Virus record (IMG/VR): IMGVR_UViG_3300006217_000126
Reading direction: 5' to 3' (one strand)
DNA length: 43,401 nt
From: a virus
Shown: in pieces, positions 25,920-43,401 of the stretch
Layout: each line of letters starts with the position of its first letter
How positions within the stretch are numbered: position 1 is the first letter of the stretch
Notes under the pieces: model-generated
Databases searched by the model: none
Told to the model about the DNA's origin: nothing
Seen by the model: only the letters and a program-made list of their open reading frames with translations
Program-made: the position numbers and the translations under genes

Positions 25920-25944
25920 GCGGGTTCGAATCCCGTTGTCTCCA
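25920..25944 (+). other. attP core: 3'-terminal fragment of a tRNA gene (T-arm plus acceptor 3' strand)
   Basis: GCGGG-TTCGAAT-CCCGT followed by TGTCTCC-A. No D arm or anticodon arm lies upstream. It sits about 100 bp from the integrase 3' end. Confidence 0.7.
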
Positions 25945-26049: not shown

Positions 26050-27093
26050 TTATAAAAAAGTATCACACGGAATATCACACGCGATTTTGTCAAAATGTTC
26101 ATTAATTTTTTTGTTTTGACGCACGGTTTCGATGTCAATCGTATTCCGGTATACTGTTTTCATAACATTATCGCTTGACCACCCTCCACGCTGAAGTATA
26201 TATTGATCGGGTACTCCAATGGCGTGCATAATAGACGCTGCATAATGCCGTAGGTCATGGAATCGGAAGTGGGGCAAGCTGGTTCTTTTTATAGCCCTTT
26301 CAAAACTTCTGGTAATTGCGTCCGGGCTACGGTTAATAATTCTCCCTGTTTTCCCTTTCAGTTTATCTATTACAAAATCAGGAAATTCGATTGTGCGGTA
26401 AGAGCCGTATGTTTTTGGCTGCTTTATGTGCCACTGATGGTCAGAACCCATTACCATGCTTTTTGTAATGGACACTTTGTTTCCGGAAATATCTGAAGCA
26501 TCCAGGGCGCATATCTCACCACGGCGCAAGGGGCCAAAGGCTGCTAATAAAATTGCGATTTCCAAATCGGTGCCGGATACTTGCCTGAGAAGCGTTTTTA
26601 CATCATCATCAGATGGACAATACAGTTCAAGGCGCTTTTTTTCTGGCAATGATACTTTAATATGCAAATCCGGGGCAAACATTTCAATGGCGGCGGACAG
26701 CAGACCATAAAGGTTACGGACAGATTTAGGAGAAAGGTTCTTAGATTTGTTACTAATCCATATCTGTACATCCGTAGTGTTTAACTCATCTAACCATATT
26801 CTTCCAACATCTTTCATATGGCGTTTCTGCATCCCTAAATATTCTTTGATTGTGCTGGGGGAGAGTACGCCCTCCTTAGCCTCAATATAGCGGCTTACAG
26901 CCTCATACAGTGTGATTCTGGACGGTTTTTTTTCAGTCTTACCAGCTTTCCATTGTGCTGCCAAGTACTTTGCTTCTTGCCGAGTAGGAGCTGTGAAAGA
27001 CTTGTAGTGTTTCTTTCCCTCCACATCCGTATAGTCATATACTTGGATCCGAATGTTGCCTGATGGGAGAGCATTTTTTTTCTTTTTTGCCAT
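26050..27093 (-). CDS. int: Tyrosine recombinase / phage integrase
   Basis: Catalytic motifs LRRGEICAL, HDLRHYAAS and GGWSS..MKTVY. Start ATG at 27093 follows AAGGAGGATGG. The longer track ORF start is unlikely. Confidence 0.9.
   Translation of the reverse strand: MAKKKKNALPSGNIRIQVYDYTDVEGKKHYKSFTAPTRQEAKYLAAQWKAGKTEKKPSRITLYEAVSRYIEAKEGVLSPSTIKEYLGMQKRHMKDVGRIWLDELNTTDVQIWISNKSKNLSPKSVRNLYGLLSAAIEMFAPDLHIKVSLPEKKRLELYCPSDDDVKTLLRQVSGTDLEIAILLAAFGPLRRGEICALDASDISGNKVSITKSMVMGSDHQWHIKQPKTYGSYRTIEFPDFVIDKLKGKTGRIINRSPDAITRSFERAIKRTSLPHFRFHDLRHYAASIMHAIGVPDQYILQRGGWSSDNVMKTVYRNTIDIETVRQNKKINEHFDKIACDIPCDTFL
26061..26080 (+). repeat. Pair of direct TATCACAC repeats, 12-bp pitch (right attP arm, inside the integrase 3' end)
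   Basis: TATCACAC at 26061-26068 and 26073-26080. Confidence 0.6.
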
Positions 27094-27287
27094 AGTACCA
27101 TCCTCCTTTAAAATTTTTGGTAAATTTGGGTACAAAAATAACACCATACCTTTGACAGCAGGTGCTAAAAATGATACAATATTCTTGGTGTATGATTGTA
27201 TCATCTGGCGTGCTGTCCAGGTATAGAATCTATGTAAGAACCGTTCCTGTTGGCGCAGGGGCGGTTTTTACATTTTAATTAAATCAT

Positions 27288-32647: not shown

Positions 32648-32968
32648 ATGAAGCAATATGAATTTATGCAGATTAGTCCGGAAGTGCTTCCGATTGCCAA
32701 AAGCAATGCCTGGAGCCTGGACAATATGGATGCACATGAAGCAGGAGGGAGAGCAGTTGAATACATAGGAAGTCAGGTGTCTGGTTTTTTGGATAATGAC
32801 CAGCATAAGGGAAAGTTAATATTTGATTACTATCAAGACAACACAGGAGCCTACTGGTTTAAAAACAGGGCAATGCTTCCAAGCGGAGCCATCGTGAGCA
32901 TGGACTTTTATCTTTTCGGGAAGGAATCAAAGAGAAAACTGAGCCGCAGGCAGAAGAAAAAATGGTAA
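32648..32968 (+). CDS. Hypothetical protein
   Basis: 106-codon ORF with a basic C-terminus. Confidence 0.55.
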   Translation: MKQYEFMQISPEVLPIAKSNAWSLDNMDAHEAGGRAVEYIGSQVSGFLDNDQHKGKLIFDYYQDNTGAYWFKNRAMLPSGAIVSMDFYLFGKESKRKLSRRQKKKW

Positions 32969-32974
32969 AGAAAT

Positions 32975-33001
32975 AGCCGTTGCGCCGGAATCGCAGCGGC
33001 T
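32975..33001 (+). terminator. Hairpin after the early operon
   Basis: 10-bp stem AGCCGTTGCG / CGCAGCGGCT with one G-T pair and a 7-nt loop. Followed by an A run rather than a T run. Confidence 0.4.
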
Positions 33002-33013
33002 AAAAAATTAGTA

Positions 33014-33061
33014 CAAATGCAATAAATAAACCCATAGAAATTATACCATTTATTGCGTTTG
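33014..33061. repeat. Long stem-loop upstream of the Rep candidate
   Basis: CAAATGCAATAAAT (33014-33027) pairs with ATTTATTGCGTTTG (33048-33061) over 14 bp, including one T-G pair. The loop is 20 nt. Confidence 0.6.
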
Positions 33062-33173
33062 GCGTCAACACGAAATGCCGGTAAAAGCCGGCTTAAGACT
33101 TGATTAAACTATTAACTTTAGGATCTGAAGCAGACTTCTGAAGTAAAAATAACGCAAAAGAAGGTGTAATGGA

Positions 33174-33911
33174 ATGGGATATTTTAAAACATCTGTAAAA
33201 GCAGGGGCCACGATTGAGGTTACAAAAAGTTATACAAAAAGGATCGGTGTGAAAGTAAGGGGAAAGAAACGGAAGCCCACTGCAGAGGAGATTGAGAAGG
33301 TCAATCAAATGAATGCAGAGCGCACATTAAGATTGAAAATCAATGCAAATTTTGGAGTTGATGATCTTTATATTACTCTGACATATAGAAAGGACGAAAA
33401 ACCAAAACCGGCGCAGGCAAAGAAAGACATCAAAAAGCTGATTGATGGGTTAAGAAAAAGGTTTAAACAGTTAGGGAAGGATTTGAAATGGGTATGTGTG
33501 ACAGAATACTTAAACAAAGCAATCCACCACCATCTGGTGATTAACCATATAAAAAATGTTGATGTTGCAAAGATGGTCAGGACCCTTTGGAAATTTGGAA
33601 GGCCGTATTTTCAGTTTTTTGATGATACCGGGCAATACAAGAAGCTGGCAGCGTATCTGATAAAAGAAACATCAAAGACCTATAAGGCGAAGGACGGAGA
33701 GAAAAAGCAAAGGTATAGTTGCAGCCGTAATCTAATCATGCCAGCACCAAAAACCGAGATCGTTAAAAAGGCCAAAAAGTGGCTTCCGGATCCGAAACCA
33801 ATGAAAGGATACTACATTGATAAAGATACCATATATAACGGCGTGGATCCTTTCACTGGAAGGGCATATCAGAAATATACAATGGTACGCATTCCCCATA
33901 GCGGAGGATAA
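33174..33911 (+). CDS. Putative HUH-type rolling-circle replication initiator (Rep)
   Basis: The three RCR motifs appear in order: LYITLTY (motif 1), AIHHHLVIN (motif 2) and LAAYLIKETSK (motif 3, catalytic Tyr). Confidence 0.55.
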   Translation: MGYFKTSVKAGATIEVTKSYTKRIGVKVRGKKRKPTAEEIEKVNQMNAERTLRLKINANFGVDDLYITLTYRKDEKPKPAQAKKDIKKLIDGLRKRFKQLGKDLKWVCVTEYLNKAIHHHLVINHIKNVDVAKMVRTLWKFGRPYFQFFDDTGQYKKLAAYLIKETSKTYKAKDGEKKQRYSCSRNLIMPAPKTEIVKKAKKWLPDPKPMKGYYIDKDTIYNGVDPFTGRAYQKYTMVRIPHSGG

Positions 33912-33949
33912 ATTGTGGATATTGTGGATAATGTGGATAACCTGGATAA
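33903..33949 (+). repeat. Tandem DnaA-box-like 9-mer array (candidate origin iterons)
   Basis: GGAGGATAA, a 2-nt gap, then contiguous TGTGGATAT, TGTGGATAA, TGTGGATAA and CCTGGATAA (33914-33949). TGTGGATAA is the reverse complement of TTATCCACA. Confidence 0.65.
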
Positions 33950-34008
33950 AGGAGCCGTCCCGCCTAATATTTATTGGGTGAAAGGCTGATTGGAGGAAGG
34001 AGGGTAAG

Positions 34009-34431
34009 TTGGAAGTAGGAATATATATAAAAAGCTGTTTTAGAGGAAATCCAAGAGGGGCAGGAGAGGCAGCAGCAATTATTGAGTATATAGATGGATC
34101 TGGCAAGAGCCATATCAGAACCAAACAATTTCAGATCGAAAATGACACGAGAAATGCCTTGTACTTGAAAACCAGCATAGCAGCTATGCGGATATTGTTA
34201 AAACCATGTTATGTCACAATTTATGTGGATTGTGATTATATGGCAAATACATATAGATTAGGATGGTTAAACAAATGGCATGATGATGGCTGGAGAAAGG
34301 CTAACAGAGAACCACCGGCTAATGTGGAAGATTGGAAACAGTTCTTTATGCTGACACAGATCCACACCATAGTATTTGCAGAGTATGACAACAGACATGA
34401 TGAAGAATTAGAAAGAAATTTAAGGAGGTAA
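34009..34431 (+). CDS. RNase H-like protein with apparently degenerate catalytic residues
   Basis: RNase HI-like segments SCFRGNPRGAGEAAAII, TRNALYLKTSIAAMRIL and VTIYVDCDY..GWLNKWHDDGWRKA. TTG start follows GGAGGAAGGAGGG. Confidence 0.5.
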   Translation: MEVGIYIKSCFRGNPRGAGEAAAIIEYIDGSGKSHIRTKQFQIENDTRNALYLKTSIAAMRILLKPCYVTIYVDCDYMANTYRLGWLNKWHDDGWRKANREPPANVEDWKQFFMLTQIHTIVFAEYDNRHDEELERNLRR

Positions 34432-34438
34432 GGAAATA

Positions 34439-34924
34439 ATGGATAAGGTACACTTTAGCACCGGTAAAGATGATTGGGGAACACCGCAGGATCTTTTCGA
34501 TGCACTCAACAAAGAATTTGGTTTTACATTGGATCCATGCGCCGATGATAACAACCACAAATGCGCCAAGTATTACACAGTGGAGCAGGACGGTTTGGCG
34601 CAATCATGGGCGGGCGAAACGGTATTTTGTAACCCGCCGTATAGCCGGAAAACAAAATCAAATTCCGGTCAAATTGCATGGGTGGAAAAGTGCTATAAAG
34701 AGGCGCAGGGGGGGATCATCGTGGTTATGCTGATACCCGCCCGCACAGATACAATAATGTTTCACGATTTCATTTTAGGCAAAGCAGAAATACGGTTTAT
34801 CAGAGGGCGGCTTAATTTTGAGGTAGACGGAGAGAAAAGCAAGGATCCGGCACCATTCCCAAGTATGATCGTAGTATTCAGAGGCGGGCAGCCAACAAAT
34901 GAAGTAAAGAGCATAACGGCATAG
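34439..34924 (+). CDS. Phage-type DNA N6-adenine methyltransferase
   Basis: Contains DDWGTPQDLFDALNKEFGFTLDPCA, CNPPYS, and PARTDT..FHD. Confidence 0.8.
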   Translation: MDKVHFSTGKDDWGTPQDLFDALNKEFGFTLDPCADDNNHKCAKYYTVEQDGLAQSWAGETVFCNPPYSRKTKSNSGQIAWVEKCYKEAQGGIIVVMLIPARTDTIMFHDFILGKAEIRFIRGRLNFEVDGEKSKDPAPFPSMIVVFRGGQPTNEVKSITA

Positions 34925-36249: not shown

Positions 36250-37032
36250 ATGCAAACAATTTCAATCATCAGCTTAAAAGGCGGCGTAGCAAAGACCACA
36301 ACGGCGGTAAACATGGCGTACATACTGGCAGCAGTACACAAGAAGAAAGTGCTTGTTATCGACAATGACAAGCAGGGTAACGCCTCTAAAGCGTTTGACC
36401 GGTACGACACCGAGGACAAGAACACCATAGCGCGGGCAATGTTGGAAAGAATTTTTGATGTTTCTGATATTATCAAGAAAACAAATTATGAGGGTATCGA
36501 CATTATAACCGCAAACATGGATCTACTGGAGGCGAACCTTAGAACCGTAGTAGATACCGGCAGACAGCAGCAGACCAGATTTAAAAAGGCACTGGCAGCA
36601 GTAAGCAGCAATTATGATTTCTGCATCATTGACAACGCGCCGGATATTAACATGAGCATCATTAACGCGCTTGTAATGACAAATGATGTGATTATACCGA
36701 TCTTTATGGACCGGTATTCATTTGACGGTTTAAACATTCTGCTAGAGCAGATCGGACAAGCGCAGGAAGATTTCAACGAAACACTGAATTTTGCCGGTTG
36801 CCTTGTGACGCAGTACCAAAACAACGATGTGAATAATTTGAACATTCAAAAGCTGCAGGCGCGTGGGCTGCCGATGTATACACAGAAGATCCGCAGAACG
36901 GAAAAGAAAGTAAGCGAAAGCACGTTTGCAAAAATGCCGCTTGTGGAATATTCGGTAAGATGCGGCGCAGCGCAGGACTATAAAAAGTTTGTCTTAGAGT
37001 ATTTGGGAGGTGCGGATCATGCAGATGATTAA
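36250..37032 (+). CDS. parA: ParA-family partition ATPase
   Basis: Deviant Walker A motif SLKGGVAKTTTAVN, and IIDNAPD. Confidence 0.85.
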   Translation: MQTISIISLKGGVAKTTTAVNMAYILAAVHKKKVLVIDNDKQGNASKAFDRYDTEDKNTIARAMLERIFDVSDIIKKTNYEGIDIITANMDLLEANLRTVVDTGRQQQTRFKKALAAVSSNYDFCIIDNAPDINMSIINALVMTNDVIIPIFMDRYSFDGLNILLEQIGQAQEDFNETLNFAGCLVTQYQNNDVNNLNIQKLQARGLPMYTQKIRRTEKKVSESTFAKMPLVEYSVRCGAAQDYKKFVLEYLGGADHADD

Positions 37033-37275: not shown

Positions 37276-38730
37276 ATGGGCTTTAATATCAATGACTTTT
37301 TGAATGCGGAAAGCAAGAAAAACCTAAAAAGTGATTGGAAACCGGTTAAGGTAAGCGTAAGAAAGTTAAGACCGGCGCCGGATAAAACAAATTTCTATCA
37401 TGCAGAGGACAAGGAGATAAAAGATCTTGCGGAAAGTATAGAGTTGATCGGGTTACAGCAGTACCCCGTAATCAGACCGGTAAAGGATACAGATGAATAC
37501 GAGGTTATAGCCGGACACAAACGGCGGCTTGCGATCCTCCAATTACTGGACGAAGGCAAAGCTGAATATGAAATGATTCCCTGCAAGGTGGAAACGCCGG
37601 ACGATATAAGAAACGAATTGATTTTGATCTTCACAAATTCGACACAGCGGGAAAGAACGGATTATGAGAAGATGCGGGAAATTGAGCGGGTGCGGGAACT
37701 TTTAAAGGAGTACCAGAAAACGTATAAATTGACTGGACGGAAACAAAGCATTATTGCCGAAATTTTAGGAACCAACAAAACTAAAGTAGGAACGCTTGAC
37801 AACATCAATAATAATCTGATCGCGCCGTTTAAGGAAGAATTTGCAGCGGGGAAAATCAGTACAAGCGCAGCAAATGAGATCGCTGGTTTAAAGCCGGATG
37901 CGCAGCAGGCATTATATGAAACATACAAGGCAACCAGATCTCTGAACGCAAAGGACGCAAAAGCCCTTAAAGAAGCATTTCCCGATGATTTACCGGAAGA
38001 ACTGAAAACAGAGGCAAGACAGTACGCGGCAGGAAGCGGCATCAGCTTAAAAGATGCAGGAGGCGTTATATCAGAATGCCACAAGAGGGAGCAGAAAATG
38101 CAGCAGGAACTGCCGAAAGAGGCAGAGACGATAGAAAACACGCCTGATCCGGAAAAAGGGCAGGAAGCGGCGCAGAACGAGCCGGAAACCAAAGTAACCT
38201 ATAACGCACCTGCACCGGATAATACAGACCGAAAAAGCCTTATCATTAACGGCAAAATCAATATGCACAAGGAATATAACGGCATGGCGGTTAAGTATTT
38301 CATGGGCGCGGTGATCGGTTCGGATTTTTTCGGCGTGGAGTTTTGGCAGGGATGGAAAAAATGCGATAGCGGAAATAGGGTAAACCAGCGAGTTTTATAT
38401 CTTATGAATTACGCCGGAATTGCAGCCACATACACCGTACAGACCGATACAACCGAGAAATGCACAGCAGTATTGATTGATAGGGGGTTAAATGTGATAC
38501 GGGAGGCAGCAGGACAGAGGGCAATTATCAGCTATGAAGAACTGGCAGAACTGATCGACATTATGATCTATACGAAGGTAATTGAGATTAAAACCATTGA
38601 AAGCGATATGAAATATTGGGCGGCGTGTACTGTTAAGGAGTTGGTATCAGTAAGTAATTATTTAACCGAAAATGAAATTTATATGTTGCAGGATCTTATG
38701 ATGCGCTGCAAAGAGAGGGCAGTAAAATAA
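37276..38730 (+). CDS. parB: ParB-like protein (ParB/Srx N-terminal domain) with a long uncharacterised C-terminal half
   Basis: Contains VSVRKLRPAP..., LAESIELIGLQQYPVIRP and YEVIAGHKRRLA. Confidence 0.75.
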   Translation: MGFNINDFLNAESKKNLKSDWKPVKVSVRKLRPAPDKTNFYHAEDKEIKDLAESIELIGLQQYPVIRPVKDTDEYEVIAGHKRRLAILQLLDEGKAEYEMIPCKVETPDDIRNELILIFTNSTQRERTDYEKMREIERVRELLKEYQKTYKLTGRKQSIIAEILGTNKTKVGTLDNINNNLIAPFKEEFAAGKISTSAANEIAGLKPDAQQALYETYKATRSLNAKDAKALKEAFPDDLPEELKTEARQYAAGSGISLKDAGGVISECHKREQKMQQELPKEAETIENTPDPEKGQEAAQNEPETKVTYNAPAPDNTDRKSLIINGKINMHKEYNGMAVKYFMGAVIGSDFFGVEFWQGWKKCDSGNRVNQRVLYLMNYAGIAATYTVQTDTTEKCTAVLIDRGLNVIREAAGQRAIISYEELAELIDIMIYTKVIEIKTIESDMKYWAACTVKELVSVSNYLTENEIYMLQDLMMRCKERAVK

Positions 38731-41615: not shown

Positions 41616-43061
41616 TTATTCAAAGATGAAATCAGGATGACCTGAGATTACATTTCTGATTGCTTCATAAGCATTGTATCCCTGCTTATGTGCTGTACCA
41701 ACATAGGACATGATTTTTAGATAATCTCTGGCACCTTCCTCAGTTCGGAAGCATCCGGATACTTTGGTTTTCACCTTTATCATCCGCAGATCTCGTTCCG
41801 CCTGGTTGTTATCAAACGGGACATGGAAGTTATGGATAAAAAGGCAGACTGAGGCCTTGTAATTCGCAAGGCGTTCTGCCAGGGCAAGGATTTTTCCTTT
41901 TTTCTTCCGTCCACGTTTTTTCTCCGTGGTTTCGGGAAGTGGATTTTCCTTCCGGGCCTGTTCGATAAGTTCATCATACTTCTTATCGAACTTATGATAA
42001 TGATAATAGCTCAGAGAGTCCTTTCCCTTCTCTACAGCTTTCTCTTTGGCCTTTTTCATTTCCAGTAAAAGGTCTATAAATGCAGATGCCCACTTCTGAT
42101 CCGGATGATTTTCATCAATCCCCGTTAATTCACGGAGAAGATGGGCACAGCAGACTGCATGCTGAATATCCGGATAATTCCAGTAGGAAGCCCAGCAGTC
42201 ATGCATGGCAATCCCTTTGAATTCCGGAAGAACGCCGCATTGCTCCATACCTGCAGTTCCACGTTTGGGACTGATATCAAGATAGGTGTATTCACAGTTT
42301 GAGGCGCCATGAACCCACCAGAGTTTTTTATCCACTCTGGTTCCGGTTTCGTCGAAATGTCCAAGCGCAGAACCGATCATCTTATCCTTGATCTTACCTA
42401 CTGTTTCACTCAGACTGTCAGCGCATCTTTTTACCATGCTGCTGACCGTTCCTGTTGCAATCGGAATGTTAAATACTCCGGAAAGAATCTCATGGGTACG
42501 TTTGATGCTGACTGCGCCTACGGTATTTAGTGCAACAGCTAATGCCTGAAGGTTTTCACCATACTGTACGGTTGCTTTTACGTCAGAAGGGAAAGCACCT
42601 GTGCGGGTATCTCCATGCAGCATACAGACTGGAAGTTCCAGTGCCTGATGCTCCGTTACATTGACTGTAACAACCGCGTCAATAACATGGCGTTTCTGCG
42701 CAATACATGCAGTGCCTTTGCATATCTGATAATGCTGGCATCCTTTACATGCGGAGGGCATATGTTTGACTATTTCATCCGGAGCTGTTATTACCGCTAA
42801 ATGTATCCCCTGATGTCCATCCTGTCCACCGACCTTTTTTCCGGATGGTTTGCGCAGACTCTTAGGAGCAGGTTTTTTATAGCCGTCACTTGAAGGTGGT
42901 TTGGAACTGTTTTTGGAGTTCTTATTAAGCTGTCCCTTCAGTTCCTGTATGGTCTGATTTAACTCAGCAATAGTTGCTGTGAGAATTTCATTTTGCCTGA
43001 GCAATGAAGCATTCTGTTCAAGCAATTGCTGAACCATTTCAAGTGTAACATTTACTGGCAT
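41616..43061 (-). CDS. IS66-family transposase (TnpC-like)
   Basis: 481 aa. N-terminal heptad/leucine-zipper region, Cys cluster CKGCQHYQICKGTAC, and the motifs HFDETGT, MHDCWASYW and CCAHLLREL. Confidence 0.85.
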   Translation of the reverse strand: MPVNVTLEMVQQLLEQNASLLRQNEILTATIAELNQTIQELKGQLNKNSKNSSKPPSSDGYKKPAPKSLRKPSGKKVGGQDGHQGIHLAVITAPDEIVKHMPSACKGCQHYQICKGTACIAQKRHVIDAVVTVNVTEHQALELPVCMLHGDTRTGAFPSDVKATVQYGENLQALAVALNTVGAVSIKRTHEILSGVFNIPIATGTVSSMVKRCADSLSETVGKIKDKMIGSALGHFDETGTRVDKKLWWVHGASNCEYTYLDISPKRGTAGMEQCGVLPEFKGIAMHDCWASYWNYPDIQHAVCCAHLLRELTGIDENHPDQKWASAFIDLLLEMKKAKEKAVEKGKDSLSYYHYHKFDKKYDELIEQARKENPLPETTEKKRGRKKKGKILALAERLANYKASVCLFIHNFHVPFDNNQAERDLRMIKVKTKVSGCFRTEEGARDYLKIMSYVGTAHKQGYNAYEAIRNVISGHPDFIFE

Positions 43062-43324
43062 TCAGACCACCTTCTTCCGTTAAATTTGATACTTCTATTT
43101 TAACGGAAAATGGTCCAAAAAGCGAATCGTGTCGTTTTGATATACTGTCAAAATGACGGTGGATAAACAGTAAAAAACAAGAGCTAATTGCCGGTAACAC
43201 TCGGATAAAATCCACAATTACTCTGTTATCTGTGATACAACTGGGGAATTATGTTTCAGTAATCCACAACCCAAAAGCACTTGGCAGTTATACTAGAAAG
43301 TTATCCACTTTTTACACTAAAGCA

Positions 43325-43401
43325 ATGACGAAACAGAAATTTTATTTTCTCTGTTTTGTCCAAAAATCAATGTGCCCTTAACAGGGTGCTGAACAGTTAC
43401 A
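43325..43401. repeat. Terminal direct repeat, exact copy of 1-77
   Basis: Same 77 nt as the window start. Confidence 0.95.
43384..43400. repeat. IS terminal inverted repeat (transposase-proximal end)
   Basis: The reverse complement reads GTAACTGTTCAGCACCC. Confidence 0.75.

Follow-up and report, generated by a model that had tools for sequence, protein, structure and literature searches.

A gapless DnaA-box array behind the rolling-circle initiator gene of a temperate phage is probably an accessory host-DnaA site and not the replication origin

The window analysed here is the whole 43,401-nucleotide stretch of IMG/VR virus record IMGVR_UViG_3300006217_000126, a temperate tailed phage. It carries rep, a gene for an HUH-type rolling-circle initiator, and two nucleotides past the TAA stop codon of rep (33909-33911) begins an array of four contiguous 9-mers that read as DnaA boxes on the minus strand (Table 1). 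A first-pass annotation had taken this array to be a likely replication origin. We suspect instead, with a probability of roughly 0.6, that it is a cluster of host-DnaA sites that is accessory to the replication module and not the origin. The array appears to be a one-off local duplication of a single DnaA box that is conserved in a clade of Lachnospiraceae prophages, and the double-strand origin (dso) of Rep likely lies upstream of the gene.

The description of four contiguous 9-mers holds exactly, given that Tandem Repeats Finder reports a period of 9 and 4.0 copies (score 51), and a separate repeat-family search agrees. Judged against TTATCCACA or TTWTNCACA, two copies are perfect boxes and one has a mismatch at position 1; the fourth copy reads TTATCCAGG on the minus strand, with two mismatches. 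These are canonical DnaA boxes, in a replication module and beside a genuine HUH initiator, as had been proposed. Only three perfect boxes occur in the window (0.33 expected), two of them being the adjacent pair in the array, which exceeds chance expectation by far. A fifth 9-mer that had been grouped with the array is present (minus-strand reading TTATCCTCC, two mismatches), but it encodes Gly-Gly-stop and its equivalent in relatives, GGCGGTTAG, is box-like in none of them. For these reasons it is probably incidental.

The identification of Rep as an HUH initiator is sound. The protein matches Pfam PF23343 (REP_ORF2-G2P) at 1.1e-17, over the family cutoff, as well as phrog_3584 ('replication initiation protein', 5.7e-53) and phrog_3419 ('rolling circle DNA replication initiation', 6e-13). 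It carries motif I (LYITLTY), the HUH motif (HHHLVI) and Y161-x-x-K164, in the order expected of HUH initiators. In an alignment with seven phage homologues (A3; 25-44% identity), no variation occurs at E111, H120 of HHHLVI, the catalytic Y161 or K164, and most of the motif-I-like LTY segment is conserved. This residue pattern is that of a single-tyrosine rolling-circle initiator, and nicking is predicted. No solved structure with a sequence relation to Rep was found. Among plasmid records, this Rep family occurs only in phiSM101-like Clostridium perfringens elements (H16-H20, 37-40 kb), which suggests that some phages with phrog_3584-type Reps persist as episomal prophages.

Around the locus there was no nucleotide match to deposited phages. 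Relatives were therefore collected via the Rep protein (72-85% identical), giving 9 viral, 13 genome and 39 metagenome contigs; the genome contigs come from Lachnospiraceae, Acetatifactor and related metagenome-assembled genomes and isolates. About 50 of these loci cover the end of rep and yield 27 distinct spacers between rep and the RNase H gene. A perfect TGTGGATAA stands at the same place in 26 of the 27. Some spacers have one box (e.g., TTAATATTGTGGATAACTCACAA) and others have two in an 8-nt register with a one-base overlap (e.g., TTGTGGATATGTGGATAACTCA); the sole spacer without a perfect box, that of L009, has a degenerate copy, AGCAGATAA. Given that the box is kept while its flanking bases vary, it appears to be under purifying selection at this position.

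Copy number at the site is 0 in L009, 1 or 2 in the other spacers of relatives, and 4 in the window only. The four-copy array in a 9-nt register is private to the window, and no relative exceeds two copies. A site prone to slippage would behave in this way, but a fixed origin architecture would not. Neither the number nor the phase of the copies is conserved, and the array is absent from close relatives that keep rep, a finding that the first-pass annotation had itself named as speaking against an origin.

All of the rep-RNase H spacers go on into a conserved inverted repeat. In alignment A1 (13 distinct sequences) 89% of the cells in this repeat are paired, and three pairs show compensatory changes, whereas slid controls reach 20-52%. 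The folding energy is weak and no better than that of shuffles. The A/T run of 11 nt that had been described as an AT-rich stretch exists; it is the centre of this inverted repeat, and the 59 nt after the array have 50.8% GC, compared with a genome mean of 42.4%. A second nick site at this hairpin was considered and rejected, as minus-strand ACTTGAC is found in some relatives but not in the window or in relatives with one box. At their downstream end the relatives' spacers read AAGGTGGATAA(G/A)TTG, which comprises the RNase H ribosome-binding site and start codon. At this place GGTGGATAA is invariant in relatives and is one mismatch from a box in the same orientation; its conservation could be due equally to Shine-Dalgarno function. 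In the window this downstream box has decayed from GGTGGATAA to GGAGGGTAA.

The additional copies in the window may have arisen by neutral slippage, or they may make up for the decay of the box at the RNase H ribosome-binding site. That the extra copies have no function, whichever of the two produced them, seems unlikely to us. More than two copies occur only in this genome, the outer copies are already diverging (one and two mismatches), the 8-nt-register pair of the relatives marks a slippage-prone site, and the downstream GGTGGATAA has been lost, all of which would fit. However, the two inner copies are still perfect, and conservation of the ancestral single box implies that at least one copy is functional.

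If the array were the origin, or an essential part of it, DnaA would open the DNA or recruit the replisome there, and Rep would act at or beside it. Perfect boxes directly adjoin rep, a box is kept at this spot in most relatives, and the conserved inverted repeat of relatives is bracketed by this box and a second box-like 9-mer, about 69 nt downstream. Nevertheless, the 40 nt upstream of the array contain no DnaA-trios (three or more [T/A]A[G/A] triplets with a short GC cluster on the 5' side of TGTGGATAA); the 5' side is rep coding sequence and has no GC cluster. There is no AT-rich DNA unwinding element beside the array, the A/T run being only 11 nt long and the spacer 51% GC. An oriC-type unwinding module at the array was rejected on these three counts. 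In addition, neither the array nor the downstream hairpin has a conserved CTTGAT-type nick motif, the array is absent in all relatives, and the box itself is absent in two that keep Rep (L005 and L018). Eight other phage lineages with this Rep family have no box cluster near rep and share an upstream nick motif instead. We consider an origin at the array improbable.

The best candidate for the dso of Rep is a hairpin-bearing element immediately upstream of rep. The noncoding region that contains it is kept in every relative, including L005 and L018, which retain the element along with Rep. In the window the motif and core read GACTTGATTAAACTATTAACTTTAGGATC (33097-33125), and the same hairpin and motif lie just upstream of rep in the eight other lineages, whose Reps are 25-44% identical (alignment A3), or up to 60% for metagenome contig L179. 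In the nine lineages the hairpin precedes the consensus CTTG(A/T)(T/A)N4-5RTATTAACTTANNGAC, in short CTTGAT..TATTAACTT..GAC. Motif, core and hairpin were found in the window, in all relatives and in the other lineages. GC content is 27.6% in the upstream region, compared with 51% in the 59 nt past the array. The gene A protein of phiX174 cuts a related sequence, after the G of ACTTGATA. CTTGATA is also the conserved nick site of Rep_1/pC194-type origins (PMC10378824). Since the upstream element tracks a divergent Rep family, adjoins a hairpin and has a known nick consensus, we regard it as the likely double-strand origin, and the proposal of an origin at the array is not supported.

Table 1. 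Features of the window at and around rep, and the equivalent upstream element in other phage lineages
Feature	Position	Strand	Sequence	Remarks
Integrase gene	26050-27204	-		
Leftward promoter-like site	33040-33068	-	TTGACG-17-TGgTATAAT	11/12 matches, with TG
Candidate dso of Rep	33077-33125	+		Conserved in all close relatives and eight other lineages
Candidate dso: GC hairpin	33077-33092			
Candidate dso: nick-type motif	33099-33105	+	CTTGATT	Predicted nick after G33102
Candidate dso: invariant core	33106-33125		AAACTATTAACTTTAGGATC	
rep	33174-33911	+		245-aa HUH-type rolling-circle initiator; Pfam PF23343, phrog_3584, phrog_3419
'Fifth' 9-mer	33903-33911	-	GGAGGATAA	2 mismatches; overlaps last two Gly codons and rep stop
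Gapless 4 x 9-nt DnaA-box array	33914-33949	-		Sequence reading, Tandem Repeats Finder, repeat-family search
Array copy 1	33914-33922		TGTGGATAT	1 mismatch to TTATCCACA (minus-strand reading)
Array copy 2	33923-33931		TGTGGATAA	Perfect DnaA box
Array copy 3	33932-33940		TGTGGATAA	Perfect DnaA box
Array copy 4	33941-33949		CCTGGATAA	2 mismatches to TTATCCACA
Conserved inverted repeat / weak hairpin	33961-33980		CGCCTAAT-ATTT-ATTGGGTG	Alignment A1
9-mer in RNase H ribosome-binding region	33999-34007	-	GGAGGGTAA	3-mismatch counterpart of GGTGGATAA
RNase H gene	34009-34431	+		Next after rep; Pfam PF00075, 2.5e-10
Dam-family methyltransferase gene	34439-34924			
ParA gene	36250-37032			
ParB-like protein gene	37276-38730			
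Butyrivibrio phage Arawn	upstream of rep		ACTTGATAAAAGTATTAACTTACCGAC	
Clostridium phage phiCs5676-1	upstream of rep		ACTTGATAAGAATATTAACTTAAGGAC	
Clostridium phage phiSM101	upstream of rep		CCTTGTACTAGATATTAACTTAACGAC	
Clostridium phage PhiS63	upstream of rep		GCTTGTAATAGGTATTATCTTAAGAAC	
Latilactobacillus phage L188	upstream of rep		GCTTGTTTCAGGTATTAACTTAGCGAC	
Latilactobacillus phage L189	upstream of rep		GCTTGTATGCTGTATTATCTTTACGAC	
Metagenome contig L179	upstream of rep		GCTTGATAAGAGTATTAACTTACCGAC	
L185	upstream of rep		CTCGAT	Most divergent copy

Several other features were observed at the candidate origin. All relatives keep the leftward promoter-like site, which lies just upstream of the hairpin of the candidate dso. 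About 35 nt to the left of the promoter-like site is a 9-bp GC hairpin (32976-33000), followed by a T-rich tract on the minus strand. Promoter and hairpin together could yield an RNA of about 65 nt, the polarity of which would suit either a countertranscript or the priming of complementary-strand synthesis. The candidate origin is flanked by two conserved inverted repeats (33040-33059 with 33151-33170, and 33014-33027 with 33048-33061), the outer one pairing the leftward-promoter region with the rep ribosome-binding site (AAGAAGGTGTAAT), and a 146-nt stretch here folds better than shuffles (z = -2.2). These repeats may serve in translational control of rep, or may form a cruciform at the origin. 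The origin core ends in GGATC (33120-33125) in the window and most close relatives. The phage has a gene for a Dam-family methyltransferase, and the origin could conceivably be methylated. In L188 (Latilactobacillus phage TMW 1.1381 P1) a perfect box is present at locus position 415, about 100 nt upstream of CTTG..TATTAACTT..GAC. This is the only other lineage with a perfect box near rep, a single case that is not significant. No known RNA family of significance was found in 32700-34200, and a promoter scan revealed no plus-strand promoter within the array.

The 9-mers had alternatively been proposed to be iterons of Rep that mimic DnaA boxes, i.e., a locus like the 'bind' locus of pMV158 or the Rep-binding element of adeno-associated virus (AAV), with the DnaA match a coincidence. 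HUH initiators often have direct-repeat binding loci near the nick, and the pMV158 bind locus is 84 bp from its nick (PMC1851628); the repeats here do abut rep. On the other hand, the repeat unit is the exact DnaA consensus, for which the prior with an arbitrary 9-mer is about 1 in 130,000. Copies range from 0 to 4 without a matching change in Rep, L005 and L018 hold Rep and the upstream element with zero copies, no copy is near the conserved nick motif 810 bp away, and other lineages of this Rep family have no box motif near rep. An array that comes and goes independently of Rep, at about 810 bp from the nick motif and missing in other lineages, is not coupled to Rep, and Rep iterons are unlikely. 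Among the explanations weighed here we give this one the lowest probability.

Only slightly less remote is binding of the array by some other protein, either as a centromere for the ParA/ParB-like system or as the operator of a phage regulator that would recognise TGTGGATAAC(TCACAA). Plasmid centromeres are often gapless head-to-tail repeats, ParA and a ParB-like protein are encoded downstream, and an extended motif, TGTGGATAACTCACAACG, recurs in unrelated viral contigs. A centromere was nevertheless rejected, given that L018 encodes a ParA that is 91% identical, yet has neither box nor array in the 6.7 kb around its rep. Relatives with a single box would be unable to use a repeat centromere, four genes and 2.3 kb separate the array from parA, and the DnaA-consensus match would again need to be a coincidence. 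The extended motif is the one-box form in this clade; in the unrelated viral contigs (loci L191, L194-L198, L207, L210, L212 and L214) it is followed by nnnTCGGGCGTGTC. It includes a small palindrome around the box, TTGTG...CACAA, and may reflect a flank preference of DnaA or of another factor.

Gapless boxes as such are not unusual, in contrast to what had been suggested at first. Tandem boxes 0-3 bp apart are the commonest arrangement (57%) in predicted bacterial origin unwinding modules (PMC8287927). The exact 18-mer TGTGGATAATGTGGATAA is present in at least 120 IMG/VR contigs (loci L026-L145), and the matches listed fall into about 65 sequence families, of which 30 have more boxes within 40 nt and 5 have the pattern of trios and a GC cluster. 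Several viral contigs carry TAGTAGTAG-GGGGC-TGTGGATAATGTGGATAA with zero gap. DnaA boxes are a common and largely unexplained feature of phage genomes.

The first 77 nt of the window are repeated exactly at its end (1-77 and 43325-43401), the signature of a circular contig from an assembly with k=77. The window is thus a complete circular genome of about 43,324 bp and not a fragment. Structural genes occupy the left half, and an integrase, a metalloprotease and a repressor are also encoded. About 100 nt from the integrase gene, GCGGGTTCGAATCCCGTTGTCTCCA (25920-25944) resembles the 3' part of a tRNA (T-arm and acceptor end), although ARAGORN found no tRNA genes in the window. This sequence is probably the core of attP, through which the phage would integrate into a tRNA gene. 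The phage has both an integrase and genes for ParA and a ParB-like protein. Boxes with at most one mismatch number 23 across the window (12.4 +/- 4 expected), and three one-mismatch boxes lie within 150 nt near the right end (43158, 43260 and 43301; 43158-43309), preceded by a transposase-like gene (phrog_688; 41616-43061, minus strand).

A rightward early operon encodes Rep, RNase H, a Dam-type methyltransferase, a small HNH-like protein, SSB, ParA and the ParB-like protein. The RNase H product also matches the NCBIfam ribonuclease HI model (5e-19), under that model's curated cutoff. Neither the window nor the downstream and extra genes of relatives revealed a helicase, helicase loader or primase. 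Between the RNase H and Dam genes, relatives have an insert (L010 4246-6452; L160 3745-4970) with genes for a D12-class adenine methyltransferase, a MazF/PemK-like toxin and a C5 cytosine methyltransferase. The window has no such insert, and so the replication module is mosaic.

Taken as host-DnaA sites, the boxes combine an exact consensus, a perfect box that stays fixed amid drifting flanks, and a DnaA whose reading residues are conserved. Firmicutes (clostridia among them) and Escherichia coli share the DnaA residues that contact DNA (PMC7561715), and therefore the box consensus should be the same in this host group. On these grounds we think it likely that DnaA binds the array in vivo. Given that the perfect box appears to be under purifying selection, recruitment of host DnaA would be the most economical reading of the box behind rep. 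The site is accessory and not core, because two relatives do without it and the other lineages of this Rep family lack it. That it could serve host factors is suggested by the gene content, as the phage encodes Rep, RNase H and SSB, with no helicase, loader or primase detected.

In the scenario that we favour, Rep would most likely nick the plus strand after the G of CTTGATT, at a predicted position of about 33102, in the AT-rich hairpin element upstream of rep. Leading-strand synthesis would then proceed rightwards through rep with the host helicase and polymerase, and both the fork and transcription would run into the boxes, about 810 bp downstream of the nick. The more likely role of box-bound DnaA would be to load the replicative helicase and primase of the host onto the displaced strand, which would allow rolling-circle replication to give double-stranded concatemers for packaging. 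Alternatively, DnaA bound between rep and the replication genes that follow it may act as a roadblock or regulator. We prefer the loading role because the boxes are downstream of the nick along the direction of the fork and the phage supplies only Rep, RNase H and SSB.

A more elaborate version, which we hold to be doubtful, is a hybrid replicon. In this case the HUH Rep would nick a pC194-like origin, and the downstream box would use DnaA, DnaD/DnaB/DnaI and the helicase on the displaced strand. DnaA would then be a lagging-strand ('single-strand origin') factor, and the number of boxes could tune this step or the titration of DnaA.

Several points weigh against an accessory DnaA site in replication. 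L005 and L018, whose Reps are 79-80% identical, have no box, hairpin or RNase H gene and carry another gene downstream; the synteny table shows the box-plus-hairpin spacer only where an RNase H gene follows rep with a spacer. Because these two relatives keep Rep and the upstream element, the site is dispensable for Rep-driven replication. The other eight lineages show no box enrichment near rep, with one perfect box in about 25 kb. In the viral contigs listed, gapless pairs also lie beside lysin, integrase, RusA, Rad52-like and scaffold genes, and as such pairs occur in many non-replication contexts, a box cluster alone is no sign of a role in replication. Single-strand folds of either strand leave the array unpaired and no inverted copy is nearby, and an A-site of the ABC-primosome type was rejected. 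With the boxes of the displaced strand outside hairpin stems, loading in the ABC-primosome form does not fit. Finally, the distance of about 810 bp from nick to box is long next to that of pBR322, and we infer occupancy by DnaA from the sequence alone.

For the annotation and engineering of origins in gut Lachnospiraceae phages, the place to look is upstream of rep, at the hairpin and CTTGAT..TATTAACTT..GAC, and not at the array. The upstream motif is common to the tailed-phage Rep family phrog_3584 and provides a directly testable nick site, which is the more useful by-product of this study. If the box beside the HUH initiator does function in replication, it would be a case of rolling-circle replication that borrows the host initiator. 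It is more likely that this is one more example of phage DnaA boxes, which are common in viral contigs and largely unexplained.

From the perspective of known replicons, the array resembles the boxes of pBR322/ColE1, P1, F, pSC101 and RK2, in that consensus 9-mers are found inside the replication module of a mobile element that lacks a helicase gene, and are proposed to attract the host initiator and, through it, the host helicase. In pBR322, a DnaA box behind the leading-strand start reportedly directs helicase loading and priming, as Seufert and Messer in 1987 and Parada and Marians in 1991 are said to have found. However, pBR322, P1, F, pSC101 and RK2 use theta or R-loop starts with iteron-binding Reps or RNA II, whereas the initiator here is an HUH nickase, and the boxes are about 810 bp from the presumed nick and dispensable in two relatives. 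The ABC primosome needs no more than a single DnaA box to load DnaB and start priming at a place other than oriC (PMC6127211). Unlike in the A-site of that system, the boxes here are outside any single-strand hairpin stem. Compared with the basal unwinding system (BUS) of oriC, the array has boxes in the same orientation with a gap within the 0-3 bp range, but the window has no [T/A]A[G/A] run, GC cluster 5' of the boxes, or AT-rich region.

The upstream element resembles the origins of pC194/pUB110 (Rep_1) and phiX174, in which a hairpin by CTTGAT(A) is located immediately upstream of rep (PMC10378824, PMC5703833). Rep is like the Rep_1 and phiX174 initiators in having a single catalytic Tyr and a conserved Glu. 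It differs from Rep_1 in matching PF23343 and not PF01446, the motif is CTTGATT and not CTTGATA, and the nick site is predicted only. Unlike the pC194 and phiX174 replicons, the replicon here is a 43-kb tailed temperate phage, not a small plasmid or microvirus. Short same-orientation repeats near an HUH rep are also known from the pMV158 bind locus, geminivirus iterons and the AAV element. Those repeats are Rep-specific and within about 100 bp of the nick, whereas the repeats here are the host DnaA consensus, 810 bp away, and vary independently of Rep.

Consensus boxes outside an unwinding element are also found in E. coli datA, in B. subtilis clusters and in T5-like phages. datA and the B. 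subtilis DnaA-box clusters are thought to titrate DnaA or to use it beyond DNA opening. A non-opening use or titration of DnaA has been proposed for the boxes of T5-like phages as well (bioRxiv 10.1101/866236). Unlike datA and the B. subtilis clusters, the array is much smaller (three good boxes) and lies inside an operon of a temperate Clostridia phage. The pairing of boxes with an HUH initiator, which had been called unusual, is slightly so: according to a review of staphylococcal plasmids, DnaA boxes have not been detected on them (PMC5703833), and we found nothing specific in the literature on phage rolling-circle Reps paired with DnaA boxes. The array therefore belongs to a known class, the DnaA-box clusters of mobile elements, with an HUH neighbour that is slightly unusual for that class.

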